Shown here in pieces: positions 4,767 to 30,697 of a DNA stretch of 64,000 nucleotides. The stretch lies in NCBI GenBank assembly GCA_003158475.1, contig PMJR01000120.1, forward strand, positions 13,758 to 77,757. The letters run 5' to 3'. Source of the DNA: Ignavibacteriota bacterium (lineage in GTDB: Bacteria > Bacteroidota > Ignavibacteria > UBA10030 > UBA6906). The position numbers and the translations under genes are program-made. Every line of letters begins with the position of its first letter. Position 1 is the stretch's first letter. The notes beneath the pieces are model-generated. The model made no database searches. It was not told the DNA's origin and saw only the letters and a program-made list of their open reading frames with translations.

Positions 4767-5936
4767 ATGGACACGATGGACCGCAGGCATTTCATGAAAA
4801 GCTCCGTGATGGGTGCATCCCTCTCCCTCCTCTCCTCATCGCCGCTGACGGCAATCACTCGCCAGGCCGGCCCTTCTCCGGGAGCGCAGGGGAAGGTCAT
4901 CACGCGCCCACTCGGAAGGACAGGCATCGAACTCCCGGTGGTCAGCATGGGAGTCATGAGGGCGGACAACCCCGCACTCGTGCGCGCTGCGCTCGAATCG
5001 GGAATGAAACACCTGGACACAGCACACGGCTACCAGAAGGGGAACAACGAGACGATGCTCGGTGAGCTGCTGAAGGATTATCCCCGGGATTCATTCGTGA
5101 TATCGACCAAAGTCCCTCCCGATGCGAAGGACGCTTTCCTCGCGAACCTTGATCTGAGCCTCGAGCGCCTGCGTATGGAATATGTTGATATACTCTATGT
5201 CCACGGGCTCACAGCGGGTGATGATGTTCTGTCCCCATCGACCCTCGATGCACTCAGAGTGGCACGCGAGAGCGGGAAGGCGCGTCACATCGGCGTTTCC
5301 ACGCACAGGAATGAGCCGGAGGTGATCCGCGCTGCGATCCGGAGCGGCGTGTACGAGGTCGTCCTTACATCGGTCAATTTCAAGCAGGACCACTATCCCG
5401 ATGTGAAAAAGGCAATCGCGGAGGCTGCTGCTGCCGGGGTCGGCATCGTGGCAATGAAGACGATGGCCGGGGCGTTCCACGACAAAGAGAGAACGAAACC
5501 CATCAACTGCAAGGCCGCACTGAAGTGGGTCCTTCAGGATCCGAACGTCACGACGGCGATTCCGGGAATCACGGCATTTGATCAGCTCACGGAAAATGCC
5601 GGCGTCAACCATGATCTCGCGATGACGGAGGAGGAGAAATCGTCGCTGGTTCCCGGAAAGTCGGAGGGAGGGCTCTACTGCCCGGGATGTTCCGGCTGCA
5701 CGGAGCGGTGCACGAAAGGACTCCCGGTTCCCGACATCATGAGGGCGTACATGTACACGTACGGGTACCGGGATGCACGAATGGCGCAGGACCTCCTCGC
5801 GGGTCTTCGGATCGCAGGTGATCCATGCGGTGAGTGTGAGGAATGCACCGTCGGGTGTCCAAGGGGATTTGATGTTCCCCGGCGGGTACGGGACATTACC
5901 AGGCTGACGTCCGTCCCGGCAGAGTTTCTCCTCTGA
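4767..5936 (+). CDS. Tat-exported aldo/keto reductase with C-terminal Cys-rich (Fe-S-like) extension
   Basis: Twin-arginine signal RRHFMKSSVMGASL. AKR core (HLDTAHGYQKGNNE, IGVSTH). C-terminal CPGCSGCTERC...CGECEECTVGCP. RBS ggagga 8 nt upstream. Confidence 0.85.
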   Translation: MDTMDRRHFMKSSVMGASLSLLSSSPLTAITRQAGPSPGAQGKVITRPLGRTGIELPVVSMGVMRADNPALVRAALESGMKHLDTAHGYQKGNNETMLGELLKDYPRDSFVISTKVPPDAKDAFLANLDLSLERLRMEYVDILYVHGLTAGDDVLSPSTLDALRVARESGKARHIGVSTHRNEPEVIRAAIRSGVYEVVLTSVNFKQDHYPDVKKAIAEAAAAGVGIVAMKTMAGAFHDKERTKPINCKAALKWVLQDPNVTTAIPGITAFDQLTENAGVNHDLAMTEEEKSSLVPGKSEGGLYCPGCSGCTERCTKGLPVPDIMRAYMYTYGYRDARMAQDLLAGLRIAGDPCGECEECTVGCPRGFDVPRRVRDITRLTSVPAEFLL

Positions 5937-6815
5937 GTGCCTGTGAGACTCATCCTCGCTCCGGTTCTTTTTTTCCTCATCTCGGGTGGGGGAGCCTCCT
6001 TCGCACAAAGGGGTGAAGGGTCGGTCTTCCCGACGGTCGCCGGATGGAGAATCGCGCCCCCCCCGGGAGACAGCGTCTATAGGCCCGATAATCTCTGGGA
6101 CATCATCGACGGAGCGGCGGAGCTCTTCCTCAGTTACGGGCTTGTGGATCTGCGCATCATGGAGTACACCGATACGGCCGGGACGGATGTCCGTGTGGAA
6201 CTCTACCGTCATGATTCAAGGACGAACGCGTTCGGCATCTACAGCCAGGAAAGAAACCCCGGCGCTCACTTCATTGATATCGGCACACAGGGCTATGTCG
6301 AGGATAAGGTGTTGAATTTCCTCTGCGGCGTCTTTTACGTGAAAATCTCGAGTCACCGGGAGGGAAGTGAAGGAATCAACGCGATGCAGTTGATCGGACG
6401 CCGGGTCGCCGAACATCTGGGGCAGGAACCCGGATGGCCCGCCGCGCTGGCGCTTCTTCCCGCGGAGCAGAGGCTCCCCAACACGGAAGGCTACATCGCG
6501 GAGAATTTCCTCGGTTACAGGATTCTTCATTCGGCATTCACCGCGCGATATGAAGGTGGGTGCACGCTCTTCATCATTGATCTCGAGTCGCCTTCCCGGG
6601 CCCGCGGCGTGGCCGAGTCCTACATGGAAGCCGTGGGCAGGTTGCAGGAGATGCGGGAAGGGAAAATCACGGACATCCCCGATCCCCACAACGGACCCCT
6701 TGCGATGCTCCTCCACGACCGGATTTTGAGCGGGGCGTTCAGTACAGGGGGGGGGCCAGCGCTTGTACACCGTTACCTGGAACTCCTTGAGGCTCGGCTT
6801 CATTCCGCGAAGTAG
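5937..6815 (+). CDS. Secreted hypothetical protein, co-transcribed with the AKR
   Basis: GTG start directly after the AKR stop. Signal peptide MPVRLILAPVLFFLISGGGASFAQ. No family recognised. Confidence 0.5.
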   Translation: MPVRLILAPVLFFLISGGGASFAQRGEGSVFPTVAGWRIAPPPGDSVYRPDNLWDIIDGAAELFLSYGLVDLRIMEYTDTAGTDVRVELYRHDSRTNAFGIYSQERNPGAHFIDIGTQGYVEDKVLNFLCGVFYVKISSHREGSEGINAMQLIGRRVAEHLGQEPGWPAALALLPAEQRLPNTEGYIAENFLGYRILHSAFTARYEGGCTLFIIDLESPSRARGVAESYMEAVGRLQEMREGKITDIPDPHNGPLAMLLHDRILSGAFSTGGGPALVHRYLELLEARLHSAK

Positions 6816-7013: not shown

Positions 7014-8621
7014 TTAGAAACGGAATCCGCATTCCAGAAAATAGTGGAATCCGTTCATGGTGTTATCGAGCACGTAGTCGGCACCGAGCGCCCCGTACAG
7101 ATGGCGCGATATCCAGAGATCGGCATTGCCGCTGAACGTCTGTGTCGTATATGTCTGCTTCAGCCGGTCGACGGTGTACGAACGAGAGTCGTAGTGGAGC
7201 AGGATATCCACACGCTGGGAAAAACTCCTCCCCAATTCGATTGTCGATTGGGATCCGCTGAGAAACGACCCTCCCACAGTGCGATACCGGAAACTTCCGA
7301 ACACACGCGAAGAAAGGATGTCCGTAATACGGATTCCCCCCCCAAGCGTGTGTGATGATCCGCCGTCGACTGCATTGGATCTGACACTCGCTTCAGTGGT
7401 CAGCGTGTACCTGGTCCCCAGGCGAACGGTCCCGTTGAGACGAAATCCGTGGCTCAGCGCCTCGTGAAAAAGAGAGTCGGAAACGCTCTTCATGGATTCA
7501 AAGAGATACACGCTCCGCGTACCATCATAGCCGAAATTCGTCGACAGCCAGGGCGTAGGTAGGTAGTTGACGAATACCAGGGTACTCGATACGAAAGGGT
7601 GCGCGGAGATGACGCCGTGGGTCATCCTCTTCAGTTCCACGTCGGCACTTCCGTAGGCGCTGAAATTCGTCCCGATCGCGAGGATATTCTGGACCGAGAG
7701 GAATTCCCTGTCGAGGTTTCCATCAACGGTCTGGCGAACATAGGCAGCGCTTGCATCATACGAGTCGAAAAAGGACTCGCCTTGATGATACGCCAGAAAC
7801 CCTCCCACACTTCTCTGGTTTCCGCCAATTCCCATTACGCGTGACTGGACCCCTGTGCCGGCAAGGGCCCCTGCGGTAAATTGACCCTGTCGCAGGAACA
7901 ATTCACCGCCATCAAGCGCGCCCACGCCGGTGACATATCGGGAGATGAATCGACCGGCACTGAATCCGAATGCCGACATCTGGCGGTCGAGACCGAGTGA
8001 CAACTCCGAGAGATCGAATCGGGAATGCGTCGAATCGCCGTAGCGGAGATACGGACCACCTGCGTCATAGTACTCCCGGCCGTAGAGGGAGAGCGTCATT
8101 CCCGTTCCCCCCAGATTCTCCAGCCTCATGTGCGCGTAGAGTGACGGTTGGCTGATGTTGAGCCGGGAGTCCTCGGCAGATTGACCGTTGTACTGGAATG
8201 CCACCCTTCCGGCAAGCACGTTTTCTCCGGGCTTCCTTTCGACGTCAGGCGGTACCTGAGCAGGAAGGGGGGAAGCCACCGTTGCCGAATCACCGGCTGC
8301 CGGCGGAAGCGGAGGCAAATTTCCTTCTTTCATAAGGGTTCCGGTATCCCCGACGCGCGGTGGAAGCAGGGAGAGAAAGGGGCGACTCACGGAGGAATGC
8401 GATGAGATCGCGGTGATTACGGCCGACCCCACAATTGAATCACCCCTGGCGATCACCATGGTGTCGCCGATGGACAGTCCTTCTTCCCTCCCTCCATCGA
8501 AATATACTTGCGCAGATGTACAATAGGTGACACGGCAGCGAATGGGGTGCATCTGTCCGCCGTCGCTGGCAGAGATTGCAACGAAAAACATCATTCCCGC
8601 CAATAGAGAAGACCTGATCAT
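7014..8621 (-). CDS. Outer-membrane beta-barrel protein (porin-like), last gene of the multihaem cytochrome operon
   Basis: ATG at 8621 gives signal peptide MIRSSLLAGMMFFVAISAS. Alternating amphipathic beta-strand pattern throughout. C-terminal ...FLECGFRF aromatic OMP signature. The track ORF 7014..9296 overlaps the cytochrome gene, so the internal start was chosen. Confidence 0.65.
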   Translation of the reverse strand: MIRSSLLAGMMFFVAISASDGGQMHPIRCRVTYCTSAQVYFDGGREEGLSIGDTMVIARGDSIVGSAVITAISSHSSVSRPFLSLLPPRVGDTGTLMKEGNLPPLPPAAGDSATVASPLPAQVPPDVERKPGENVLAGRVAFQYNGQSAEDSRLNISQPSLYAHMRLENLGGTGMTLSLYGREYYDAGGPYLRYGDSTHSRFDLSELSLGLDRQMSAFGFSAGRFISRYVTGVGALDGGELFLRQGQFTAGALAGTGVQSRVMGIGGNQRSVGGFLAYHQGESFFDSYDASAAYVRQTVDGNLDREFLSVQNILAIGTNFSAYGSADVELKRMTHGVISAHPFVSSTLVFVNYLPTPWLSTNFGYDGTRSVYLFESMKSVSDSLFHEALSHGFRLNGTVRLGTRYTLTTEASVRSNAVDGGSSHTLGGGIRITDILSSRVFGSFRYRTVGGSFLSGSQSTIELGRSFSQRVDILLHYDSRSYTVDRLKQTYTTQTFSGNADLWISRHLYGALGADYVLDNTMNGFHYFLECGFRF

Positions 8622-8637
8622 GCCATAGTCCCGGCGT

Positions 8638-9483
8638 TTATCCCTGCGGATGGCATCGGTAGCACGCCGAGCTGATGTACTGGTATCCACTCCGCCCCGA
8701 ATGAGTGTTGTCGGTGCTCGCCTTGTTGTGTTCATGGCAGTTGATGCATTCAAACGCGCCGTAGTTGGCCTGGTTCCCGTGGCAGTCGGAACAGGAATTC
8801 CACCGGCCGGGACTGTGATGACTTCCCGCACCGATGGGGAACCATTGGTCATGGGGAAACAATGATGCGGGTTGCCAGGTGAGAGCCCGATGACATGTCG
8901 CGCAATCGGTGTTAAATTTCGCCGCCACATGATTGGGATTGGTGGTTCTGGTGTATTCGCGAAGATGGCACGACACGCATTCGACGCTCGTCCCACGGAA
9001 TCGATTCCGGGTGTGACACGTCGTGCAGGGGAGCGACGCATGGATTCCCCGGGTCGGGAAATTGGTGTTGTCGTGATCGAACGACGAAAGCCATGAGGAT
9101 GCCGATTCATCGTGGCACTCCGTGCACCGGGTTGAAAAGCCCGCCACGGTATGGTTGACCGCAATGGCGGATTCGAAATCTCGCCGGTGGCACCCGAAGC
9201 AGTCTGAGGTGGTCCCTGCGAAGCGGAGTGTCGTATGACAGAGCCGGCATGAAGCCTCACGGTGTTGTCCGCGAAGCGGGAACGTCGTCGTGTCATGATC
9301 GAACTGGAGGACGGGATTCAGAGTCGTCCAGGATTCGCTTCCATGGCAATCGGTGCATCGCAAGAGGAGGGGGCCGTGCGGTGAATCCTGCGCCGCGGCA
9401 ATACCGGCGAGAATCACAATGAGCTGGATTGTTCTCCGTGACAGGAGCAGCGCTCTTTGAAGCTGGTCAGTGTGTCGTTTCAT
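8638..9483 (-). CDS. Decahaem c-type cytochrome (MtrA-sized, 281 aa), Sec signal peptide
   Basis: 10 CxxCH motifs counted (CTDCH, CRLCH, CFGCH, CTECH, CTTCH, CVSCH, CATCH, CSDCH, CINCH, CYRCH). Signal peptide LIVILAGIAAAQ. Confidence 0.85.
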   Translation of the reverse strand: MKRHTDQLQRALLLSRRTIQLIVILAGIAAAQDSPHGPLLLRCTDCHGSESWTTLNPVLQFDHDTTTFPLRGQHREASCRLCHTTLRFAGTTSDCFGCHRRDFESAIAVNHTVAGFSTRCTECHDESASSWLSSFDHDNTNFPTRGIHASLPCTTCHTRNRFRGTSVECVSCHLREYTRTTNPNHVAAKFNTDCATCHRALTWQPASLFPHDQWFPIGAGSHHSPGRWNSCSDCHGNQANYGAFECINCHEHNKASTDNTHSGRSGYQYISSACYRCHPQG

Positions 9484-11107
9484 GGAGATTGGGTTTGTGA
9501 CAGTCTTCGCAGGCGACTCTCAGGGGCTTGTAACGGACCACTTGTCTGGCATCCCGTGATTCTGTCGGGTGACATTTCGCGCACTTGACGTCAGCATGGG
9601 CCCCTCTCAGAGCAAATCTCGAGCCGGTGCTGTGATCGAAAGTAATGCGCTTCCAGGATTGTGCGTTATGGCAAGGTTCACACCGTGTTGCTCCCCCTTT
9701 GACGAATTGGCCGAAGTGCGGATCCTTGTGGCAGGGTGCGCACACGGTCGTAAGGCCTGCATACTGCACGGGATCGCCCTTTCCGTGACATTTCACGCAT
9801 TGCACGGTGGAGTGCCTTCCTTCAAGCGGGAATGCGGATTTGCTGTGATCAAAGAGAAGTGAAGACCATGATTCGGTGAGATGGCATGACTCGCAATTCT
9901 TGTTCTCTCTTGTGAATTGATCCTTGTGCGGGTCCGGGTGACACGTGCTGCATGTGAGGTTCTTTTCCCAACGAAATTGTCTCGTGCTTTTCGCCTTGAT
10001 GATGTCGGGCTTGTGACAGGCGATGCAATTTGTCGCAATGTGTGCACCTGTCAGGGGATACCTGCTCTGCAGATGGCTTTCGACCGTGTAGAAAATGAGC
10101 GTAAAGTCCTTGTCCGTATGGCACGCCTCGCATTTCCCTCCGTCCGAACGCGCGGCAAACTGTCCGCCATGGGCATCCTCGTGGCATTCTGCACAGAGGT
10201 GAAACCGTGAAATGTGAAACCCTTTTTCACCGCTGGCATTCACCGCGCGGGGAGCAGGGGCGTGGCATGCCAGGCATGTGACGTTCGCGTGCTTTCCATT
10301 GAGCGGAAAATCCGTCCGCTGGTGGTCGAACGCGCCCCCCTTCGACGTCTTCCAGTCCCCGGTGGAATGGCACTCGTCGCAACGGCGGGTGAACTTTTTC
10401 ATGTGAGGATCAGGGTGGCACGATGCGCAGGTCGAAAACTCCATGCCTCGATAGAGAACGGCTTTGGAATGGTCCACGGTGGCATGGTGGCACCCAGCAC
10501 ACTCGACCTGCCTGTGCTTTCCGGTCAAAGGGTAGCGGGTATGATCATGCGAAAAGAGGCGCACCGGCTTCCATCCTTTCGTGTCGTGGCACGAGGAACA
10601 TGGAATGGAGAACTGATTGCGGTGGATGTCCGGGTGACAAGACACACAGGAGGGAGACAGACCGAGAAGAGTCTGACTGCGCTTCCCCTGAAGCATCCTC
10701 ACATCGGGTGCTGCCACGCGGCTCCACGAATGGCAGGAATCGCAAACGATGTCGGCATGCTTGCCATTCAGCGGGAAACCGGCCGTCGTGCGATGATCAA
10801 ACTTTGTTGTATCGAGTCGCACGATTTGAAATTCTTCGCCGTTGTGATCGCTATGACACTCGGCGCACCGTTTGCCTGCGATATGTGCGTGGAATCCCCG
10901 CGTGGAGTCCAAGGCTGCTTTGATCTCCTTGTGGCAATCGAGACACTTGTCGTTCGAGAGAGTTTTCCCGTACGGATGGCATGAGGTGCATTTGCCGATT
11001 CCTTCAAGGTCGTGATGCGCGCGGGCGAGTTTGCCGGGGGAGATTTGGGCCTCTGCACGAAGAGGAACGAGAGCAGCAAGTATCAGCGCTACGCTGCGTG
11101 CAATCAT
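9467..11107 (-). CDS. Multihaem c-type cytochrome with about 20 haem sites, Sec signal peptide
   Basis: 20 CxxCH motifs counted. Start chosen at MIARSVALILAALVPLRAEAQ (the track ORF begins at 11182). The stop overlaps the decahaem start by 17 nt. Confidence 0.85.
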   Translation of the reverse strand: MIARSVALILAALVPLRAEAQISPGKLARAHHDLEGIGKCTSCHPYGKTLSNDKCLDCHKEIKAALDSTRGFHAHIAGKRCAECHSDHNGEEFQIVRLDTTKFDHRTTAGFPLNGKHADIVCDSCHSWSRVAAPDVRMLQGKRSQTLLGLSPSCVSCHPDIHRNQFSIPCSSCHDTKGWKPVRLFSHDHTRYPLTGKHRQVECAGCHHATVDHSKAVLYRGMEFSTCASCHPDPHMKKFTRRCDECHSTGDWKTSKGGAFDHQRTDFPLNGKHANVTCLACHAPAPRAVNASGEKGFHISRFHLCAECHEDAHGGQFAARSDGGKCEACHTDKDFTLIFYTVESHLQSRYPLTGAHIATNCIACHKPDIIKAKSTRQFRWEKNLTCSTCHPDPHKDQFTRENKNCESCHLTESWSSLLFDHSKSAFPLEGRHSTVQCVKCHGKGDPVQYAGLTTVCAPCHKDPHFGQFVKGGATRCEPCHNAQSWKRITFDHSTGSRFALRGAHADVKCAKCHPTESRDARQVVRYKPLRVACEDCHKPNLHETTH

Positions 11108-11424
11108 CCCGCCGCCCCACATTTGGCCAAACAGATAAGCGGTTGCAACGTGGACAGGGAAAACGACAAACAGGGTGAGCATAATCGGGAGATGATGACC
11201 CCCGCCGGAATCATCACGCTGGCCGCAATGCGATAGAGATGTCGGATGCTTCCGGAAGGTTTCAGGAGGTGAAAGGGAGGGTCGAATGGTCTCTGCGCAA
11301 ACCTGCGCGTAGAGAAGTCACTCCCCATGAGCCACGGGAGAACCGCAACGAGGCAGAATGAGGCAACCAGTGCGCCTGCAAACCGGGAGTGCAACGATTT
11401 CTTCTTCAAGCAAGGAATGATCAC
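11104..11424 (-). CDS. Small putative membrane protein (106 aa), ATGA-coupled to the 20-haem cytochrome
   Basis: Two hydrophobic segments. Its stop TGA shares TG with the ATG at 11107 (atga at 11104-11107). It could also be a high-GC artefact. Confidence 0.25.
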   Translation of the reverse strand: MIIPCLKKKSLHSRFAGALVASFCLVAVLPWLMGSDFSTRRFAQRPFDPPFHLLKPSGSIRHLYRIAASVMIPAGVIISRLCSPCLSFSLSTLQPLICLAKCGAAG

Positions 11425-20578: not shown

Positions 20579-21715
20579 ATGAAACGATTCATTGCTACCG
20601 CGGCGGTTGTCCTGGCGCTGCTCTCATGCGACTACGCGCATGCGCAGGTGTACGGCCAGGGAAACGGGTTCGGCTACAGCCTGAACAAATACGGACGTGT
20701 CCGCATCTATACGCCAGACACGAACGGGACCACCCAATTGAACCGGGCGTCCATTCTTCTGGCGCTCAGCAAGACGAACGTGGGCGATTATACGGAAGAT
20801 GCCAACGCCGTGTCCGGACCGGCAATCACAGCCGACGGTCCCAGCCCCCGGACTGCGACGGTCCTGTTCGACAATTCGTACAATCTCCAGCAGCCAAAGG
20901 CCAAGGTCCGCCTGTCGACCTACACATGGCCGAACGATGCGTTTCTGATCGCCCGCTACACCGTTATCAATGATACGACAATCAGCTATCCCCTCTACCT
21001 GGGGCTTGCGGTGTCGCCCGAGCCCGGCGGGACATACGGCGGCGAGACCGTGACTTATGACGCCACAAAAAAAGTCGCTTACTTCTTCGTGTCGGGGACC
21101 GCGATGTACATGGGGGTCAAGCTGGTGAGCGGTTCACCCTATTCTTTCCACGTGCTTGACTATGGCGTGTATTCGCCGTCAGATCCAAGTTCCGACGCCG
21201 CCGACGATTCGACACGATACAATATGACAGCGCTTCCCGGATTCGATAATTCGCTCACGGTCGGCGCGAACGGATCGATCTACAATCTGAACGTCGGCGC
21301 GGTGACGATCGCCCACGGTGACTCCTCGACGTTCAGCGTCGCCTACGTCTGGGGGACCACGTTGAGCGCCATGCAGGCCGCGGCTGATTCGGCCGATGCG
21401 CGCTACAAGAAGGTGTTCACATCGATCCTGCAGACATCTCAGGCCGTTCCTCAGAGGACATCGCTCCTTCAGAACTACCCGAATCCCTTCAACCCGGCGA
21501 CCCTGATTGAGTTCCAGCTCCATCACGCAGGGGAAGTGTCGTTGAGAGTCTATGACGTCCTCGGGCGGGAAGTCGCCGTGCTTGCGAACGGCACGCTGAA
21601 TGCAGGGACGTACCGCGTCCCCTTCGACGGGCGCCAGCTTGCAAGCGGCATCTACTACTACAGGCTCGTCGCAGGTTCATTCACCGACTCGAAGCGCATG
21701 TTGCTCGTGAAATAA
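20579..21715 (+). CDS. Secreted hypothetical protein with T9SS (Por) C-terminal sorting domain
   Basis: Signal peptide. C-terminal LQNYPNPFNPATLIEFQL...GIYYYRLVAGSFTDSKRMLLVK. Confidence 0.7.
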   Translation: MKRFIATAAVVLALLSCDYAHAQVYGQGNGFGYSLNKYGRVRIYTPDTNGTTQLNRASILLALSKTNVGDYTEDANAVSGPAITADGPSPRTATVLFDNSYNLQQPKAKVRLSTYTWPNDAFLIARYTVINDTTISYPLYLGLAVSPEPGGTYGGETVTYDATKKVAYFFVSGTAMYMGVKLVSGSPYSFHVLDYGVYSPSDPSSDAADDSTRYNMTALPGFDNSLTVGANGSIYNLNVGAVTIAHGDSSTFSVAYVWGTTLSAMQAAADSADARYKKVFTSILQTSQAVPQRTSLLQNYPNPFNPATLIEFQLHHAGEVSLRVYDVLGREVAVLANGTLNAGTYRVPFDGRQLASGIYYYRLVAGSFTDSKRMLLVK

Positions 21716-22619: not shown

Positions 22620-25082
22620 ATGAAACCAACCCTTTGCCTTTTCCTGGTCCTCCTCGCGGGGGCCGGCACGCTGATTGCGGGAACAACAGGGAAGATCAGC
22701 GGTCACATCACGGACGCAGGAAGCGGTGAATCACTTGTCGGTGCAAACATGGCCCTCGTCGGCGCGCCGCTCGGGGCGTCGACGGGCACCGACGGGACCT
22801 ATGTCATACTGAACATCCCGCCGGGAACGTACGATCTGCGGGTGACGCTCGTGGGCTACGGCCCCACGCTGATCAAGGGTGTGCGGATCGTGGCCGACCA
22901 GACGACGACACTTGACGCGAAGCTCGAGGTTGCAGCGGTGGGACTGGCGGAGGTGGTGATCCAGGCCGAGCGGCCGATGGTACAGAAGGACGCGACGGCC
23001 ACAATCGCCGTCATCAACAGCGAACAGATCAAGATGATGCCGGTGAAGGACTTCGTGGAGGTGCTCCAGATGCAGTCGGGTGTGGTGGCTGACGGCAGGA
23101 ACCTCTATGTGCGGGGGGGCCGCTCGAACGAAGTTGCCTATCTCATCGACGGCATGTACGTCAAGGACCCGGTCCTGGGGACTTCGGGGACGAGGATCCA
23201 CAACGAAGCCATTTCGGAGCTGGTGTTTCTCGACGGGTCGTTCAATGCCGAGTACGGGAATGCGCTCAGCGGAGTTGTCAACATCGTGACGAAGGAGGGG
23301 GGGAAGGACTTTACAGGGTTGCTCGAAGGCCGCACGAGTGAATTCGGCATCAGTCCTTACAATCAATACCGGGAGGACCGGGTCGCGGCATTGATCAGCG
23401 GCCCGATTGCGGGTGATAACCTGAACTTCTTTGCAAGCGGCGAACGGGACGCCCGGGGAAGCTGGCTCCCCTTCGGCTACGACCGGACACTCTCCTTCAT
23501 CGGGAAAGTCAGCGGAACACTCATTCCCGGGTTTAAGACAACCCTGACGGGGAGGTACAGCGCGAACGACAACCGGCCGTACGATCAGAGCTGGAAATAC
23601 ATCGGCAATCAATACCTGAAGGTCCGGGAAAAGAGCAGGCAGACTCTCCTCACTGTCACACACACGGTTCTTCCGAATCTTTTCTACGACGTGCGGTTGT
23701 CGTATTTTAACCAGTCGTACTATTCGGGGATCGACAAGGATACCTCGCAGTATCTCTCCACGGGGAGCCGGCAGTACTTCCGGAACGCCGGGCTGGGGAC
23801 CGAGTTCTATTCCCTGGCGGATCCGGTTGAAGTCACCGATAACCGGACGGAGACGTTCAACGTCCGGGGAGACCTCACCTGGCAGATCGGGCGCAATAAC
23901 GAGGTACGCACGGGTTTCGACTTCAAGAAACACAACCTTTCCTATTTCGACGTCTACGATCCCAAGCGGGTCGCTCCGTATGTCACGGATTTCGACAAAC
24001 ACCCGGTCGAGGGGGCGGCCTACATCCAGGACAAGATCGAAATGAGCTCGCTCGTCGTCAGCCTCGGGCTCCGGTTCGATTATGCCGATCAAAGGGCGCC
24101 CTTCCGGAGCAACCCTCTCGACCCCGCATCGATCGTCCCCTCGAAGGCGAAGACACAGTGGAGTCCGCGTCTCGGCGTCGCCCACCCGATAAGCGACCGG
24201 ACGGCACTCCACTTCTCGTACGGACATTTCTTTCAGAATCCCGACTACGAGCGCCTGTATGAAAATTCGCAGTATGACGTCCACGTCAACCAGCCGATCT
24301 TCGGCCAGCCGGATCTCAATGCCGAGAGGACGACGGAATACGAGGTGGGCATCACGCATCAGTTCAGCCCGACATTTACCGCCTCTTTTACCGCCTATTA
24401 CAAGGATATTACCGGCCTCATAGGAACGATGTATTACCCGCCGTTCCAGGATGGGAGATATGTCGGCTACTACCTGTACGTCAATGAGGCATATGCCAAC
24501 GACAAGGGTTTTGAGACCCGCCTGACCATGCGAAGGTCGAAGTATCTGGCGGGATCGCTCACGTATACCTACTCGGTGGCGAAAGGGAGCGCATCGTCCG
24601 AGCTGGAGAACTATCCCAGTACGACGCAATCCACGCTTCTGTACCCGCTGAATCAGGACAGGACGCATCTCCTGAACGCCAACGTCAGCGTGATGTTCCC
24701 CGCCGACGACGGCCCTTCCATGTTCGGATCGTATCCTCTGGAAAACACGTACTGGAACGTGATCATCCGCGTCAACAGCGGGGCGCCGTACACGCCATCG
24801 AGCAGACGCAGCAGCTTCATCCCGATCAATTCCGCCCGCATGCCGACGACGTACTCCATCGATCTCGAATTCGGAAAATCGTGGAAGTTCGGCCAGTTTG
24901 GGTTCGAACCGTTCGTGGAAATTCTCAACCTTACGGACCACAAAAATGTCCTGTATGTCTGGCCGGACACCGGCGAACCCGACGTCACATTTGATACCGC
25001 CCACTCGACAGAATACCTCCAGGACCCGAGTAACTACGGGCCCCCGCGGCGAATCCGGATCGGCGCACGGCTGACGCTGTGA
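22620..25082 (+). CDS. TonB-dependent receptor-like OM protein with N-terminal carboxypeptidase-regulatory-like domain and plug
   Basis: Signal peptide. CarbopepD_reg-like (ISGHITDAGSGESLVGANMAL...TYDLRVTLVGY). Plug (NLYVRGGRSNEVAYLIDGMYV). Long beta-barrel. Confidence 0.75.
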   Translation: MKPTLCLFLVLLAGAGTLIAGTTGKISGHITDAGSGESLVGANMALVGAPLGASTGTDGTYVILNIPPGTYDLRVTLVGYGPTLIKGVRIVADQTTTLDAKLEVAAVGLAEVVIQAERPMVQKDATATIAVINSEQIKMMPVKDFVEVLQMQSGVVADGRNLYVRGGRSNEVAYLIDGMYVKDPVLGTSGTRIHNEAISELVFLDGSFNAEYGNALSGVVNIVTKEGGKDFTGLLEGRTSEFGISPYNQYREDRVAALISGPIAGDNLNFFASGERDARGSWLPFGYDRTLSFIGKVSGTLIPGFKTTLTGRYSANDNRPYDQSWKYIGNQYLKVREKSRQTLLTVTHTVLPNLFYDVRLSYFNQSYYSGIDKDTSQYLSTGSRQYFRNAGLGTEFYSLADPVEVTDNRTETFNVRGDLTWQIGRNNEVRTGFDFKKHNLSYFDVYDPKRVAPYVTDFDKHPVEGAAYIQDKIEMSSLVVSLGLRFDYADQRAPFRSNPLDPASIVPSKAKTQWSPRLGVAHPISDRTALHFSYGHFFQNPDYERLYENSQYDVHVNQPIFGQPDLNAERTTEYEVGITHQFSPTFTASFTAYYKDITGLIGTMYYPPFQDGRYVGYYLYVNEAYANDKGFETRLTMRRSKYLAGSLTYTYSVAKGSASSELENYPSTTQSTLLYPLNQDRTHLLNANVSVMFPADDGPSMFGSYPLENTYWNVIIRVNSGAPYTPSSRRSSFIPINSARMPTTYSIDLEFGKSWKFGQFGFEPFVEILNLTDHKNVLYVWPDTGEPDVTFDTAHSTEYLQDPSNYGPPRRIRIGARLTL

Positions 25083-25144
25083 GCCACGCACGCGGTGTTC
25101 GACCGTCAGCGGCTTCATCCCCAGGCGCGAAAGGACAATCAATC

Positions 25145-27676
25145 ATGACAATGAGCTCTCACGGAAGATCCAGTGCCGCGATCGCACGCTGCGCCCTGTG
25201 TCTCGTGTGGTGCCTGGCCTTCACTCCGGGGCGCGCAGACGCACAGGAGAAGAAAAACAGGAAGGAGGACGAGAGGCCCCTGACGGTGCAGAAGTCCTCC
25301 GACATACTCGACCGCGCAGGCGGGGCGCATACGAAGAGCAACATCGGCTCCTATTTCGTGAACAGGGGAAAACTCTACGCATCGGACTACTCGCAGGGTC
25401 CGACGTTCGAGTGGCCGATCGGATCCACGCATGAGTTCGTCTACCGGGCGAACCCCTACGTCGGCATTCCGGGCAACGTGGTCCAGGGTAGGTTCTACAG
25501 CCACTCGGAATGGGAGGCGGCGGCCGGATACAACAACCGCGATAGCGCACAACCGGCATTCAGCGACAGGCCCTACACGTGGCCGGCAGGCGGATGGCCG
25601 GTGAAGGACGCGTCCGGGAAGCCTGTTTTTGTCTCGAACCAGGACAGCTACTGCGTGTACAACGATTCGCTGAACACCGTGGGGATACTCAACCTTCAGA
25701 TAAACCAGACCGGCTATGCCTTCAGCCAGAAGAACGTTCGTGACATGGTCATCTACATTTTCGATGTCACGAACCGGTCGACCCGGACCTACGACAGTGT
25801 CTACTTCGGCGTCTATGCCGATATCTCCTGCGGTGGATCCGACAAGGTGCAGGATTACGGGCACCGCCGGATGGTGTTCGATAAGTCGCTGAACCGGCTC
25901 TACCTGTACAAGCCCAGCGGTGTCTCGTTTCAGTGGAATGGCGCGCCGAGCGGCTACTTCGGAGTGATTCTGATGCAAACGCCAAAGGTCAACGGCACAC
26001 AACTCGGTATCACCGACTGGCATTATAATCACTATGCGGATGATCAGGACCAGGACTGGGTGCAGTACGGTACACTCTCCAGTTCGCCGGCCCTTTTTAC
26101 AGACATACTCGGCCCGAAGTTCTTCCACCCCGGGGCGAACGCCCCCGATCTTCACTATGACGACCCGGCGACGATCCCGGCGGACGGCGATGATATCGTT
26201 TCCACGATGGGATCGGGTCCGTACAGGCTTGCACCCGGTGATACGCTCAGGTTCATCACTGCGTGGGTGGCGGCGGGAACGGCGTCCGATATGGACCAGA
26301 TTACCTCCAATGCGTACAAACTGCTGGCGCAGGAGTTCGTCACTTCGAAACCCCCCGGGGCTCCGAAGGTGACGGCTGTTCCCGGGGACAGGAAGGTCCT
26401 CCTGACGTGGGACAACACGGCGGAGAGCTCGCGTGACATTTTCACGAACGCGGTCAACTTCGAAGGGTACCACCTGTACAAGAGCGTCGACAAGGGGCAG
26501 CACTGGGATCAGATCGATCGGAACTCCGTGGCAATCGGTCCGGACCCTGTTCCGCTTGCATCCTTTGACAAAATCGACGGCATGGGAAAGGAGACCGGCC
26601 TCCAGTACAGCTTCATCGATTCGAATGTGACGAACGGATTTGAATACTGGTATTCGGTAACGGGATACACGGTGCCGGATGCAGACAATGCTGTCCTGGA
26701 AACTCCCCTTGGACGCGCGGGGGATAACAATGTGGGAGTCGCGGTCCCCCGATCCACGGCAACAGCCCGAACACCTGTCGGGACGACCCCGGTGCAGAAG
26801 ACCGGGACCGGAACGGCAAACGTCCTCTTCCGCGTCACTGCGCTTGATATCCCTCCGGCAGGCGGACTCACGTACGACGTAAGCTTCGCGCCCGCTGCAA
26901 CCCTGGAGCAAGGCAACCCGCGGATGACGGTGCAGGTCGGCATCGATTCCGTCGGGTTGCGGACCTCGGAGACATACAGCCTCGCGTTTGCCTCGCCGAC
27001 GCAGTTCGTGCTGCGAAATCTGACCGAGAAGACGGTCCTCATCGCGTCCGGCACATTGACATCGGGTGCGCCAATCCTCTTTGAAGGGATCCGTCTGACC
27101 GTGACGGTGGCCTCCGCGTCCCCGGCGGATCTTCCCAAACAGGGGGATTCGCTCGTGGTGTGCCCCGGCGTGAAGGTCGACGTCACGGGGCAGCAGAATG
27201 TCCTGCCGCTGCAGCCGTTTGAGTACGGGACCGCCTATGCCACGTCCAACGGCGTGGTGTTCTCGATCACGCCGGCCGACACGTTCGCGCAAAGCCGGAT
27301 CACGTACCGGGACCGTTACAGCTTCACGACAACCGCAGCCGCGCTGAGTCCCGCCGCGACCACTGACGACCTGGGGAAAATCAAGGTGGTGCCGAACCCG
27401 TACATCGTGTCTTCCCGGTACGAGCAGGAATTTGGGATTCTTCGCAAAGAGCCGCTCCGGCAACTCAAGTTCAACAACCTGCCGGCGAAATGCACGATCT
27501 ATATCTTCTCCCTGGCAGGCGACAAGGTCCAGACCATTGAGCACTACAGCGACAATGGCACGGAAACATGGGACATGCGCACGGCGGGGAACCGTGAGAT
27601 CGCCCCCGGGGTGTACATCTACCTCGTGAAGACGGATACAGCCGAGAAGACCGGCCGCTTTGCGGTGATCAAATAG
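25145..27676 (+). CDS. Large secreted protein (about 840 aa) with FN3-like module and T9SS-type C-terminal beta-sandwich domain
   Basis: RBS aaagga plus ATG 25145. Signal AAIARCALCLVWCLAFTPGRADAQ. FN3-like PGAPKVTAVPGDRKVLLTWDNT. C-terminal KIKVVPNPYIV...GVYIYLVKTDTAEKTGRFAVIK. Confidence 0.65.
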   Translation: MTMSSHGRSSAAIARCALCLVWCLAFTPGRADAQEKKNRKEDERPLTVQKSSDILDRAGGAHTKSNIGSYFVNRGKLYASDYSQGPTFEWPIGSTHEFVYRANPYVGIPGNVVQGRFYSHSEWEAAAGYNNRDSAQPAFSDRPYTWPAGGWPVKDASGKPVFVSNQDSYCVYNDSLNTVGILNLQINQTGYAFSQKNVRDMVIYIFDVTNRSTRTYDSVYFGVYADISCGGSDKVQDYGHRRMVFDKSLNRLYLYKPSGVSFQWNGAPSGYFGVILMQTPKVNGTQLGITDWHYNHYADDQDQDWVQYGTLSSSPALFTDILGPKFFHPGANAPDLHYDDPATIPADGDDIVSTMGSGPYRLAPGDTLRFITAWVAAGTASDMDQITSNAYKLLAQEFVTSKPPGAPKVTAVPGDRKVLLTWDNTAESSRDIFTNAVNFEGYHLYKSVDKGQHWDQIDRNSVAIGPDPVPLASFDKIDGMGKETGLQYSFIDSNVTNGFEYWYSVTGYTVPDADNAVLETPLGRAGDNNVGVAVPRSTATARTPVGTTPVQKTGTGTANVLFRVTALDIPPAGGLTYDVSFAPAATLEQGNPRMTVQVGIDSVGLRTSETYSLAFASPTQFVLRNLTEKTVLIASGTLTSGAPILFEGIRLTVTVASASPADLPKQGDSLVVCPGVKVDVTGQQNVLPLQPFEYGTAYATSNGVVFSITPADTFAQSRITYRDRYSFTTTAAALSPAATTDDLGKIKVVPNPYIVSSRYEQEFGILRKEPLRQLKFNNLPAKCTIYIFSLAGDKVQTIEHYSDNGTETWDMRTAGNREIAPGVYIYLVKTDTAEKTGRFAVIK

Positions 27677-27680
27677 GAGG

Positions 27681-28685
27681 ATGGCCATGAAGAGAGTGAT
27701 TCTTCTTGCCCTCGCGATCGCACTCTGCCAGGTTCAAACGAGAGCGCAGAATCCGAATATCGGGACAGCAGGAGCACAGTTCCTGAAAATCCCGGTCGGT
27801 CCCCGGGCGGCGGCCATGGCCGGCGCGTTCGTGTCCAACACCGATGACGCGTCTTCACTCTTCTGGAACCCGGCCGGGATCGTCGGCGTGAAATCCGGCG
27901 CGCTGTTTGCCGCGCATACCGACTGGTGGGAAACGATCAAGCTGAACCACGCCGCGCTTGTGGAGTCGTTCGAGGACATCGGCTCATTCGGCGTCTCCGT
28001 CACGGTGCTTTCGATGGGCGAAATGGAGGTCACGACCGAAGATCAACCTGAGGGGACCGGCCAGTCATTCGACGCACAGGACGTGATGATCGGCGTCAGC
28101 TATGCCCGGAGGCTGACAAATGAATTCAGCGTCGGCATCACTGCGAAGTACGTGCAGCAGCGGATCTGGAACGAATCGGCGAGCGCCATCGCGTTTGATA
28201 TCGGGACCCAGTACCGCATCGGGTTCCGGGATCTGACCATCGGCATGAGCATGATGAATTTCGGCGGCAACATGACGTACGCCGGTCCGGACCTCGGGGT
28301 CAAATACACCGTGGACCCGAACAATGCCGGCGTGCGTCTTGCACCGGCCAATCTTGCCCCGGATGACTATCCACTCCCCCTTCATTTCCAGGTCGGGGTT
28401 TCGATGTCTCCGTATACCAGCGAGAACTTTTCGATGCTGCTTGCGGTCGATGTTGCGCACCCGAACGACAACCAGGAGGAGGTGAATGTCGGGACGGAGT
28501 TGACCATTCTCCGCCAGTTCTTCCTCCGCGGGGGGTACCGGTTCGGGTACGACATCGAGAAGGCAACGTTCGGTGCCGGCGTGGCTCTCCCGCTCGGCGG
28601 CCTCAACCTGACCGTCGACTACGCCTATGCGATGTACAACCTGCTTCCCAACATCAGCCGGATCTCGGTCGGCATGGCGTTCTGA
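27681..28685 (+). CDS. PorV/PorQ family (T9SS-associated FadL-like OM protein)
   Basis: Signal peptide. N-terminal GTAGAQFLKIPVGPRAAAMAGAFVSNTDDASSLFWNPAGI signature. Ends MAF. Confidence 0.6.
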   Translation: MAMKRVILLALAIALCQVQTRAQNPNIGTAGAQFLKIPVGPRAAAMAGAFVSNTDDASSLFWNPAGIVGVKSGALFAAHTDWWETIKLNHAALVESFEDIGSFGVSVTVLSMGEMEVTTEDQPEGTGQSFDAQDVMIGVSYARRLTNEFSVGITAKYVQQRIWNESASAIAFDIGTQYRIGFRDLTIGMSMMNFGGNMTYAGPDLGVKYTVDPNNAGVRLAPANLAPDDYPLPLHFQVGVSMSPYTSENFSMLLAVDVAHPNDNQEEVNVGTELTILRQFFLRGGYRFGYDIEKATFGAGVALPLGGLNLTVDYAYAMYNLLPNISRISVGMAF

Positions 28686-30697
28686 TGCGCACCGCCTTAC
28701 GTGTTGCGGCGGCCCTGGCACTCTTCGTGCGCCCGGGCTTTGGCCAGGGATCCGTGCTTCTGGTCGGCGGCGGAAGCGAGAATTACAACGACTGGTCGGA
28801 TGCCCCGTATCGCTGGCTTGTGCAGCACGCGCCTAACGGTCATATCCTCGTTCTCCATTACTCCACCGCCTCGACTTTTCTCCCCGCGTATTTCCAGTGG
28901 CTGGGGGCGACCTCGGCGACAAACCTCATCATCCCGTCGGCCGCCACGGCGAATGATACGAACACCGCGAACGCGATTCTCGCCTGCGACGGGATCTTCC
29001 TGCGCGGAGGGGACCAGTGGCAGTATATCTCACTCTGGAGGGGGACGCTCGCCGAGACGGCACTCCGGCAGGTCTTCCAGCGGGGAGGTGTGATCGGAGG
29101 GACCAGCGCGGGGATGGCCGTTCTGAGCCAGGTGATTTTTGACGCGCGCAACACCTCCGTCGATCCACGCGACGCGCTGAGAGATCCTCTTTCCTCGGGG
29201 ATCACATTTACAGAGAACTTCCTCGGGTTTGTCCCCGGGGTCCTTGGCGACACGCATTTCTTTGAGCGCGGGCGCCTGGGCAGGCTGATGGCAATGCTCT
29301 CCGTCTACAGGGAGCGCAACGGCCGGTGGATCACCGGTGTCGGAGTCGATTACAGCACAGCGCTTGCGATCGACATGAGCGGGGATGCCCGGGTCATGGG
29401 GGCCGGGACGGTGACAGTTTTGCGCGGGACTGCCGGGACAACCTACTCGATCGCGCCCGGCAACCCGTTGGCCATGTCGAATCTTCGGATGGACATGCTG
29501 ACGCCCGGCTACCAGATCAATCTTTCCAGCGGCGAGATCCGGCCTCCCTCAGGTGCGCTTCCATTCTCACCGAACGAGGTGCACTGCGTTGCCTCGCCAC
29601 TTATACTGGACGGGAGCGGATCGGCGGCACTCTGGACAGGCGCGACAGGGAGTCTGAATCATTTCGTAGCGGCGCTCTCATCGCCGGCGGATACCGTCGG
29701 GGTGATCTCCCGGGCCGGGTCCACATCAGGCTCGGCGAGCGTTGGCGCTTTTCTGGATGCGAGGGGGGTCGCCTGGCGCGCACTCGGTGTCAGCGACGGG
29801 ACGAAGAACGACCCTGCCCTGGCCGCGCTGTGCCACGGGTGCAGGGGGTTCGTCTTCGTCAGCAACAGTGCGGAGAGTCTTGCGGGTTTCTTCACGTCGA
29901 CGCTTCTGGGTGCTTCGTTCGCGGCCCAACTCCAGAACAACTCCCCGGCCCTGATGCTCTCCGGCGACTGTGCTCTGGCCGCAGACAGCGCCGTCGGGAG
30001 TATCGGGGCAGATGCCGATGGCGCCTACTACGGCACACTGACACGCCTGAAGGGGCTCGGCATCGCCCGAGGAATTGAAATCATGCCGCGTCTCTATGAT
30101 GACGCGGACTCGATCGACAATCGCTTCAGCGGTCTTTTCTGGGGAATGGGGAGGTCGAGAGCGGCGTACGGCCTCCTCCTGGACGGGGGAACTTCAGCAC
30201 AGGTAAGCTCTGCAGGGCTTCTGAGCATCTCCGGGACGACCCCGGCAATCGTGGTCGACGCCCGCGGGGTCACCTCGCTCGACTTTCCATCATTCCGCGC
30301 CAATGTGAGGTCCAATCCACGTGTGGGTGCCGCGCTGGTAGGCGCCGTGATCCATGTCGTCCGCGACGCGCAGACATTCGATCTCGCCTCCGGCGAAATC
30401 CTCGGCGTGCGCACTGTCCGGCCGGCCCCTCCGGAGGATTTCTTCCTCTCGCAGAGTTATCCGAATCCCTTTAACCCGGCGACCCGTCTCCAGTTCCGCA
30501 TCGCACGGCATCAACCGGTTCGCCTGATCGTCTACGACCTCACAGGGAAGGAGATCGCGACGCTCCTGGATGGACCGGTGGATCCCGGGACGTACACTGT
30601 GACCTTCGACGGGAGCGGACTCGCCAGCGGCGTGTATTTCTGCCGGCTCCTCTCTCCGCCTTTCGCACAAACCCGAAAACTCGTCCTGATCCGATGA
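28685..30697 (+). CDS. Secreted tandem peptidase-S51 (cyanophycinase-like) protein with T9SS C-terminal sorting domain
   Basis: Domain 1: LLVGGGSE, FLRGGDQWQY, GGTSAGMAVL, HFFERGRLGRLMAML, paralleling CphB. Second degenerate S51-like half. C-terminal SQSYPNPFNPATRLQF...GVYFCRL. Confidence 0.75.
   Translation: MRTALRVAAALALFVRPGFGQGSVLLVGGGSENYNDWSDAPYRWLVQHAPNGHILVLHYSTASTFLPAYFQWLGATSATNLIIPSAATANDTNTANAILACDGIFLRGGDQWQYISLWRGTLAETALRQVFQRGGVIGGTSAGMAVLSQVIFDARNTSVDPRDALRDPLSSGITFTENFLGFVPGVLGDTHFFERGRLGRLMAMLSVYRERNGRWITGVGVDYSTALAIDMSGDARVMGAGTVTVLRGTAGTTYSIAPGNPLAMSNLRMDMLTPGYQINLSSGEIRPPSGALPFSPNEVHCVASPLILDGSGSAALWTGATGSLNHFVAALSSPADTVGVISRAGSTSGSASVGAFLDARGVAWRALGVSDGTKNDPALAALCHGCRGFVFVSNSAESLAGFFTSTLLGASFAAQLQNNSPALMLSGDCALAADSAVGSIGADADGAYYGTLTRLKGLGIARGIEIMPRLYDDADSIDNRFSGLFWGMGRSRAAYGLLLDGGTSAQVSSAGLLSISGTTPAIVVDARGVTSLDFPSFRANVRSNPRVGAALVGAVIHVVRDAQTFDLASGEILGVRTVRPAPPEDFFLSQSYPNPFNPATRLQFRIARHQPVRLIVYDLTGKEIATLLDGPVDPGTYTVTFDGSGLASGVYFCRLLSPPFAQTRKLVLIR

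Follow-up and report, generated by a model that had tools for sequence, protein, structure and literature searches.

Porin-cytochrome (Pcc) systems of the Geobacter type (OmaB-OmbB-OmcB; ExtABCD/ExtEFG/ExtHIJKL) use porins with 18 to 22 predicted strands, which are much smaller than MtrB (PMC4245776), and "Geobacter-like pcc" clusters have been described in Ignavibacterium album, Melioribacter roseus, and Ignavibacteria metagenome-assembled genomes (MAGs) (PMC4245776, PMC6137239, PMC7399161, PMC6344600). The pcc cluster of I. album, IALB_1837 to IALB_1840, contains a 14-haem periplasmic cytochrome (PMC4245776), and IALB_1839 shares 19 to 20% identity with the OmbB group (PMC4245776, supplementary table 1). 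A Bacteroidota MAG, assigned to Lentimicrobium and recovered only from incubations with conductive carbon particles, carries a porin with adjacent 20- and 61-haem cytochromes (PMC13013709, Nat Commun 2026), a "gigantic" cluster of porin and multihaem cytochrome genes described as being without synteny to characterized PCC modules (PMC13013709). Here we describe a cluster of three minus-strand genes in a 64-kb stretch of an Ignavibacteriota genome (contig PMJR01000120.1; this whole stretch is called the window below), encoding a 20-haem cytochrome (cyt20), a decahaem cytochrome (cytB), and an outer-membrane beta-barrel protein. With moderate confidence, we read the three genes as encoding a porin-cytochrome conduit by which electrons would cross the outer membrane.

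The cytochrome-barrel core

The cyt20 gene (9467..11107, minus strand) encodes a 546-amino-acid (aa) c-type cytochrome with 20 haems in c7/c3-type repeats. It overlaps by 17 nt (9467-9483) with the gene for the 281-aa decahaem cytochrome cytB (8638..9483, minus strand), which lies directly upstream of the barrel gene (7014..8621, minus strand) across a gap of 16 nt (8622-8637). These coordinates agree with a preliminary description of the locus as three packed genes, and a motif count reproduced its 20 and 10 CxxCH sites, in open reading frames (ORFs) 9467-11182 and 8638-9483, respectively (both minus strand). The same count found no CxxCK, CxxxCH, or CxxxxCH motif in either ORF. In six frames of the window, cyt20 and cytB are the only ORFs of at least 50 aa that bear CxxCH, so their clustering is not a matter of chance.

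The longest ORF of the barrel gene spans 760 aa (7014-9296). Its start was placed at M226 (N-terminus MIRSSLLAGMMFFVAISA) because this fits the lengths of the homologues (526 to 561 aa) and yields a signal peptide; the resulting protein has the 535 aa and the C-terminal GFRF given earlier, the family consensus at this end being GYRF. The longest ORF of cyt20 has 571 aa, and the conserved start M26 (11107) gives the protein of 546 aa, with the signal peptide MIARSVALILAALVPLRAEA ahead of QISPG and cleavage at about AEA/QISPG. M26 is most likely the true start; the mature N-terminus QISPG, following a signal-like segment, is kept in 24 orthologues. Judged by eye, Sec/SPase I (signal peptidase I)-like signals stand at the N-termini of all three proteins, in line with the Sec signal peptides first assigned to them.

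Both cytochromes matched Pfam Cytochrome_C7 (PF14522; cut-off, 24.8 bits), cyt20 with 71 bits over seven stretches and cytB with 40.6 bits over three; cytB also matches the Pfam CIII and Paired_CXXCH models. In 24 orthologues of cyt20, 40 Cys and 40 His are conserved, namely the 20 motif His and exactly 20 others; orthologues that hold the same operon position are 40 to 79% identical to it. Among 57 homologues of cytB, 11 His are invariant beyond its 10 motif His. Because 20 of 20 and at least 10 of 10 distal His are conserved and no CxxCK occurs, all haems of cyt20 and cytB look bis-His ligated, a pattern of electron transfer and not of an enzyme. The preliminary description had named catalytic CxxCK/NrfA-type sites as a feature that would contradict its view; none was found, and a nitrite- or hydroxylamine-reductase-type enzyme (NrfA, octahaem reductases, HAO) was rejected on the grounds that CxxCK is absent and all distal His are conserved. 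Scores against hidden Markov models (HMMs) of other multihaem cytochromes were low: cyt20 reached 53 bits with the MtrA/DmsE model TIGR03508 (cut-off, 192) and 15 bits with the OmcA/MtrC model TIGR03507 (cut-off, 209) and stayed under the cut-off of TIGR04257 (nanowire_3heme), cytB did not match TIGR03508, and both proteins fell far below the cut-offs of the NrfB, octahaem-reductase, and HmcA models. Sequence searches of the PDB (phmmer) with cyt20 and cytB returned no meaningful relative among solved structures.

The two cytochromes differ in how far their length varies. The haem number of cyt20 is exactly 20 in Ignavibacteriota, in a Cyclobacteriaceae MAG, and in a Zixibacteria MAG, whereas the barrel-adjacent cytochromes carry 9 to 41 haems across the family. 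The larger of these (25 to 41 haems) share the N-terminus (Q-SPHG...C..CH) and the C-terminus (...ACYxCHPxG) of cytB, and these common termini indicate that the barrel-adjacent cytochromes form one family with an expandable middle. No lipobox or Por_Secre_tail domain was found in cytB or its 25- to 41-haem paralogues, and likewise, neither a lipobox nor a C-terminal domain of the type IX secretion system (T9SS) was found in cyt20 or its 24 orthologues; the signals of all these proteins are of the SPase I type, ending in ...AQ/ISPG or ...Q/SPHG. These features make it more likely that cyt20 is a periplasmic relay of fixed length: its signal is of the SPase I type and comes without a lipobox or T9SS domain, although the genome uses T9SS; its haem number and length are invariant across phyla while the cytB type varies; and full operons, described below, place it between inner- and outer-membrane components. 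Haem wires extend about 1 nm per haem (about 8 nm for the 10 haems of MtrA and about 12 nm for the 12 haems of GSU1996), so 20 haems could span most of a periplasm. The 20-haem protein had originally been taken for the outer partner of the conduit, an assignment against which its fixed haem number, its mid-operon position, and the missing lipobox and T9SS tail speak.

The AlphaFold2 model of the barrel protein (25 homologues; mean pLDDT [predicted local distance difference test score], 69.7, with 75 to 90 over most of the barrel) comprises a small beta domain at residues 26 to 97 (8331..8546, minus strand; strands predicted by AlphaFold2), a Pro-rich linker (aa 98 to 134; 8220..8330, minus strand; sequence KEGNLPPLPPAAGDSATVASPLPAQVPPDVERKPGEN) that is disordered over residues 100 to 130, where the pLDDT is below 50, and 22 long strands at residues 135 to 535. 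The N-terminal beta domain is probably periplasmic. It is about 70 aa long, gave weak matches to Pfam FlgT_C in 16 of 72 family members (best E value, 8e-4), and is kept in the Zixibacteria and Cyclobacteriaceae homologues. The model best matches TonB-dependent receptor barrels and has TonB-receptor-sized geometry. Yet identity to these receptors, the closest solved fold, is only 8%, the protein has no Pfam match to Plug (PF07715) or TonB_dep_Rec, and its N-terminal domain of about 70 aa sits on a long flexible linker, unlike the plug of about 150 aa held in the lumen of those receptors; as there is no plug, an identity as a TonB-dependent receptor was rejected. The preliminary description had named a small or plugged lumen as a possible objection. 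The protein models as an open 22-strand barrel, and a wide barrel with no obvious plug would be consistent with a cytochrome inside, although the N-terminal domain or the conserved loop described next may occlude the lumen.

Within the barrel family, conservation is highest in the motif VYLFESMKSVSDSLF (VYLFESMK..DSLF; 7467..7511, minus strand), which lies between strands 13 and 14. In the family alignment, Y372, L373, F374, E375, M377, D382, and L384 are invariant, and in the model, segment 369 to 390 is of low confidence and non-strand, with one short helix. The segment might serve as a point of contact or as a constriction.

No Pfam or NCBIfam model matched the window barrel protein at E ≤ 0.1, and at E ≤ 0.05 none of the 72 barrel-family members had an MtrB/PioB-type match (PF11854, TIGR03509). 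A search of the PDB with the family profile at E ≤ 10 did not recover MtrB (6r2q_B), and the 22 strands of the window barrel fall short of the 26 of MtrB-type barrels. The comparison with MtrB/PioB models that had been proposed at the outset yielded no match, and the family is unmodelled in Pfam and NCBIfam. The barrel family lacks such a model even though it comprises more than 2,000 clusters at 50% identity in metagenomes.

Conservation of gene order and the full operon

A word-indexed protein search with the window barrel returned 31 relatives, all annotated as "hypothetical"; a 72-sequence profile used in the same protein search brought back the 30 proteins of the single-sequence set and no others, and none of them was named. 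The cluster members behind ten distant representatives likewise carried neither a protein name nor an organism. An exhaustive profile search gave 2,033 clusters (50% identity) at E ≤ 1e-3 and 578 at E ≤ 1e-30, and among the best 150 listed of the 2,033, most are 500 to 575 aa long. A scan of species-representative genomes with the barrel motif VYLFESMKSVSDSLF as search pattern yielded 36 loci, nearly all of them in MAGs labelled Ignavibacteriota, Ignavibacteriae, Kryptoniota, or, loosely, "Bacteroidota." The closest barrels are those of Ignavibacteriae fen_1286 (locus L004; 82% identity) and MFD05942.bin.1.310 (locus L005; 80%), which places the window in an Ignavibacteriota genome, and "fen" in isolate names suggests a peat habitat. 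The cluster was also seen on contigs labelled Synechococcus sp. UW140, "uncultured Chitinophagaceae," and Bacteriovoracaceae (L016, L013/L014/L024/L025/L027, and P0030), which are probably mis-binned or mislabelled MAG contigs.

The association of cytochrome and barrel is strict. A multihaem gene ends just upstream of the barrel gene in 32 of the 32 loci with upstream DNA, and the junction is short or overlapping in every one of them; this cytochrome has 10 haems in 21 loci and 9 to 39 in the remainder. A gene for a 19- or 20-haem protein of 540 to 660 aa lies further upstream in 24 of the 32. The same gene order was found in the genomic contexts of individual homologous proteins, and the same cytochrome-barrel order occurs in the Cyclobacteriaceae and Zixibacteria MAGs; hhalign matched the barrels of these two MAGs to the family profile with probabilities of 99.5 and 99.95. 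Adjacency persists down to 24 to 33% barrel identity and in at least three phyla. In comparisons with L004 and L005, the ratio of nonsynonymous to synonymous substitution rates (dN/dS) was 0.13 to 0.20 for all three genes (cyt20, 0.20; cytB, 0.13 to 0.15) at a dS of about 0.5 to 0.65, and these low values indicate that the three genes are maintained under purifying selection.

In most lineages the core is part of a longer operon with the order mem291, a CcmH-like tetratricopeptide repeat (TPR) protein, cyt20, an optional 25- to 41-haem cytochrome, cytB, the barrel, and a flavoprotein. Mem291 is a His-rich membrane protein of 291 aa with five hydrophobic segments, as read by eye; its His residues in the motifs EFH, YHT, HYWHxxH, and xHVG are conserved in all or nearly all of 15 full-length aligned sequences, and it had no match in Pfam, in NCBIfam, or in a profile search of the PDB. 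The TPR protein resembles the CcmH/CycH TPR domain. The flavoprotein (434 aa) combines a membrane helix at its N-terminus with a ferredoxin domain of the 2x[4Fe-4S] type and an FAD/NAD(P)H domain that resembles YpdA and thioredoxin reductase. Of the 36 genome loci, 27 contain it, as do the L002/L003 contig pair and the two loci outside the phylum (for example, L002, 9623-10927; L040, 4085-5416; L041, 10118-11452). Its copies are 53 to 76% identical to that of L002, whereas the window barrel is 24 to 46% identical to relatives outside its own clade; by these identities the flavoprotein gene ranks with the best conserved ones in the full operon. Flavoprotein and mem291 may together let electrons enter from NAD(P)H. 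It is less likely that the pair is a CcdA/ResA-type module for thiol reduction in cytochrome maturation, since no Cys of mem291 is invariant and Fe-S clusters are present in the flavoprotein.

Gene content indicates that the window holds a reduced, three-gene version of this larger, widespread operon. No TPR or flavoprotein gene occurs anywhere in the 64 kb, and mem291 survives as two remnants. The preliminary description had noted a possible 106-aa membrane ORF coupled to cyt20 through ATGA; the ORF (11104-11424) and its coupling are real, but a genuine small membrane gene was rejected, since its first 78 residues (11191..11424, minus strand) are the N-terminal part of mem291, and what follows is an out-of-frame join after a deletion. 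This remnant is 65% identical to the start of the L005 mem291 and 32 to 41% identical to others, and it aligns to columns 1 to 88 of the mem291 alignment; DNA homology of the window to L005 ends at about 11190. The C-terminal remnant (11108..11182, minus strand) consists of 25 codons that now form the N-terminal extension of the 571-aa cyt20 ORF, and its sequence, LFVVFPVHVATAYLFGQMWGG, aligns to the C-terminus of the L005 mem291, LFVIFLVHVVTAVLFGYVWGG, and to columns 293 to 316 of the mem291 alignment. Relative to L005, about 590 bp have been deleted between the two remnants, including the helices with the conserved His. With mem291 reduced to a remnant and no TPR or flavoprotein gene in the window, electron input would have to come from genes elsewhere in the genome.

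Related loci are in other states of decay. In L004 most of the mem291 gene is gone and an apparent fragment from a different part of it remains, which suggests a separate deletion, and in L005 the gene is split over two frames. Together, the window, L004, and L005 point to a clade that is losing the inner-membrane part of the operon while keeping the cytochrome-barrel core. The core alone, within 8 kb, was also found in L001/L010, L008, and L015, and in L008 it consists of the decahaem cytochrome and the barrel only.

Further genes flank some of the full operons. The region downstream of the one in L002 (11151-17604; also in L003) encodes two fusion proteins of 710 and 933 aa, each joining a multihaem cytochrome to a cytochrome-b561/Ni_hydr_CYTB domain, which we take to resemble the Geobacter inner-membrane cytochrome CbcL in architecture, and a NapC/NirT-type cytochrome of 453 aa; the fusions and the NapC/NirT-type cytochrome are candidate quinol-linked inner-membrane partners. 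In the Cyclobacteriaceae MAG (L040, 133-3237), a 1,034-aa ResB-CcsA fusion (System II cytochrome c synthase) heads the operon. This fusion and the CcmH-like TPR protein of other loci suggest that the very haem-rich proteins might have maturation factors of their own.

In the window, the cluster is adjoined by a plus-strand pair of genes, one for an aldo/keto reductase that starts with a twin-arginine-like sequence (MDRRHFMKSS...) and has a 4Fe-4S dicluster domain at its C-terminus (4767-5936) and, following without a gap, one for a DUF6599 protein (5937-6815). This pair adjoins the cluster in L004 too and is not found there in more distant loci. The T9SS attributed to this genome was borne out by a PorV-like protein and by three proteins that carry a Por_Secre_tail domain at the C-terminus, among them a GH16 glycosidase and a BNR/sortilin-like protein (20579-21715, 27681-28685, 34486-35577, and 38320-40461, plus strand). 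In region 22620-32196 (plus strand), the gene for a SusC-like TonB-dependent receptor (820 aa) is followed by those for an 865-aa protein that no Pfam model matches, the PorV-like protein, and peptidases of the S51 and M14 families, a set that suggests a locus for the utilization of peptides or polymers.

Comparison with described conduits

As in Geobacter-type Pcc systems, the gene for a porin with a strand number in the 18-to-22 range adjoins that for a Sec-exported multihaem cytochrome, and the Ignavibacterium and Melioribacter examples come from the same phylum as the window. The I. album order (cytochrome, 14-haem cytochrome, porin, cytochrome) resembles that of L037 and L038, where a 20-haem cytochrome is followed by a second cytochrome of 20 (L037) or 14 (L038) haems, the barrel, and a 47- or 23-haem cytochrome. 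Given the strand range of Pcc porins and the published Ignavibacteria pcc clusters, neither a small barrel nor a host of the FCB type is new in itself, and the shortness of the barrel is not the sign of an undescribed family that it had been thought to be. The differences lie elsewhere. Unlike Pcc systems, the window cluster has no lipoprotein outer cytochrome, none of its cytochromes bearing a lipobox; the barrel partner has 10 (up to 41) haems instead of 5 to 14; a conserved 20-haem cytochrome is added; the barrel protein has an N-terminal beta domain and a Pro-rich linker; and full operons add the His-rich membrane protein, the TPR protein, and the Fe-S flavoprotein. These differences are of architecture; in sequence, the barrel family may be a divergent branch of the porins OmbB/OmbC, ExtB/E/I, and IALB_1839.

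With MtrCAB and MtoAB/PioAB the locus shares a decahaem gene directly upstream of the barrel gene and a haem density of about 25 to 28 residues per haem, and with MtoAB/PioAB also the absence of a lipoprotein outer cytochrome. In contrast, it has no match to the MtrB_PioB, DmsE/MtrA, or OmcA/MtrC models or to Mtr chains in the PDB, and the label "MtrCAB-like" under which it was first described does not hold against models of all three components. The c7/c3 repeats, all-bis-His haems, and lack of a membrane anchor make cyt20 similar to the Geobacter poly-c7 "nanowire" cytochromes of the GSU1996 type, from which it differs in having 20 haems rather than 12 and in lying in a barrel operon. The Lentimicrobium cluster shows the pattern of a 20-haem cytochrome with an expandable partner, although the window has the minimal 10-haem version; likened by description and not by sequence, it appears to fit this architecture, which would then have been glimpsed before but not defined. 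A literature search turned up no account of the barrel family, the fixed 20-haem partner, or an association of the flavoprotein with mem291. What is new here is an unmodelled, widespread barrel family with non-lipoprotein c7-type cytochromes, reduced to a three-gene core.

Alternative readings and implications

In kind, the earlier view of the locus as a porin-cytochrome module is upheld by synteny in 32 of 32 loci, the 22-strand barrel model, the bis-His haems, and the absence of CxxCK. In the conduit that we favour, cytB would lie inside the lumen of the 22-strand barrel and form an insulated bis-His haem chain through the membrane, and cyt20 would serve in the periplasm as a relay of fixed length, or possibly as a wire that spans it, supplying cytB with electrons from inner-membrane dehydrogenases. 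Electrons would likely flow outward, with Fe(III) minerals or humic substances of anoxic peat as acceptors; this direction is favoured because the phylum is heterotrophic and the flavoprotein of the full operon is of the NAD(P)H type.

Several observations weigh against this conduit. The AlphaFold2 model (57 homologues) of cytB, the proposed occupant of the lumen, is poor (pLDDT, 65), a Foldseek search of the PDB with it gave no structural match, and confidence in the barrel model (pLDDT, 69.7) is moderate. Among Pfam and NCBIfam models and PDB entries, none of the characterized conduit proteins matched. Co-transcription is deduced from the gene overlap and short gap only, and a scan for promoters and terminators gave counts no higher than in shuffled sequence. 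The mem291 component of the operon is destroyed in the window, and the approximately 25 window ORFs scanned up to about position 42500 included neither an inner-membrane quinol dehydrogenase gene nor any other respiratory gene; the ORFs from there to 64000 were covered by the CxxCH search, in which none had the motif, and not by the protein-family scan. Finally, I. album has a pcc cluster and yet, according to one report, does not grow on oxides of Fe(III) or Mn(IV) (PMC4245776).

The same conduit might instead serve electron uptake from Fe(II), reduced humics, a cathode, or a syntrophic partner. The lack of a lipoprotein outer cytochrome is shared with MtoAB/PioAB, which have been proposed for Fe(II) oxidation (PMC6344600), all-bis-His haem chains are reversible in principle, and an "mto-like" system has been noted in an Ignavibacteriales MAG (PMC6137239). 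We nevertheless regard uptake as unlikely, given that cultured Ignavibacteria are organoheterotrophs and Melioribacter reduces Fe(III) (PMC6137239, PMC7399161), that the full-operon flavoprotein resembles a module oxidizing NAD(P)H, that the related-looking Lentimicrobium cluster was interpreted as electrogenic (PMC13013709), and that no autotrophy or Fe-oxidation marker genes occur in the scanned part of the window (to about 42500). Quite unlikely, too, is an MtrCAB-like complex with the 20-haem cytochrome at the cell surface, docked outside the barrel and contacting minerals. The order of large cytochrome, decahaem cytochrome, and barrel does resemble mtrC-mtrA-mtrB, precomputed annotations contain weak, sub-threshold Pfam matches to MtrC/MtrF domains II/IV, and the absence of a known sorting signal is no proof, as surface cytochromes of this phylum may be exported by another route. 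Such a partner is hard to reconcile with the absence of a lipobox or T9SS C-terminal domain in cyt20 and all 24 orthologues, with the 15 bits obtained against the OmcA/MtrC cut-off of 209, with a haem number fixed at 20 where that of the cytB type varies, with L008, which has the barrel and decahaem cytochrome and no cyt20 within 8 kb upstream, and with full operons, where cyt20 comes after mem291, the inner-membrane component, and the TPR protein.

A purely periplasmic redox module, either an electron store or a reductase of soluble substrates, with the barrel as a diffusion porin, is very improbable: there is no catalytic haem motif, every haem has a conserved sixth ligand, the neighbourhood contains no conserved catalytic subunit, the strict cytB-barrel adjacency in 32 of 32 loci is hard to explain by a generic porin, and 22 strands exceed the 16 to 18 of diffusion porins. 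Chance adjacency of an unrelated outer-membrane protein, for which only the missing annotation of the barrel speaks, is effectively refuted by the 32 of 32 loci and by persistence to 24 to 33% barrel identity in at least three phyla.

Beyond the outer-membrane conduit itself, we tentatively raise a wider possibility, to which we attach a low probability: that the window genes are the outer half of an undescribed, self-contained electron-export pathway, widespread in Ignavibacteriota, Bacteroidota, Zixibacteria, and related groups, which would lead from NAD(P)H to the cell surface independently of quinones. Electrons would pass from the membrane-anchored cytoplasmic flavoprotein (FAD plus 2x[4Fe-4S]) to the five-helix, His-rich mem291, presumed to carry haem b, and on to cyt20, whose invariant length would act as a ruler across the periplasm. 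They would then enter the variable cytochrome (10 to 41 haems, possibly 61) threaded through the 22-strand barrel and so reach the surface without a lipoprotein outer cytochrome.

Extracellular electron transfer in Ignavibacteriota and Bacteroidota has been inferred from enrichments on anodes, iron minerals, and conductive particles, and its machinery is poorly defined. Published surveys have relied on HMMs built from Shewanella and Geobacter porins or on BLAST against those proteins (PMC7399161, PMC4245776). If such porin searches miss this barrel family, some of the electroactive potential of peat, sediment, and groundwater communities has been overlooked, and the barrel profile combined with the fixed 20-haem cytochrome would make a specific marker. 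The pairing of an invariant cyt20 with an expandable barrel-adjacent cytochrome is a natural experiment on haem-wire length versus envelope dimensions, and the flavoprotein and membrane-protein pair is a testable candidate for a new inner-membrane entry point.

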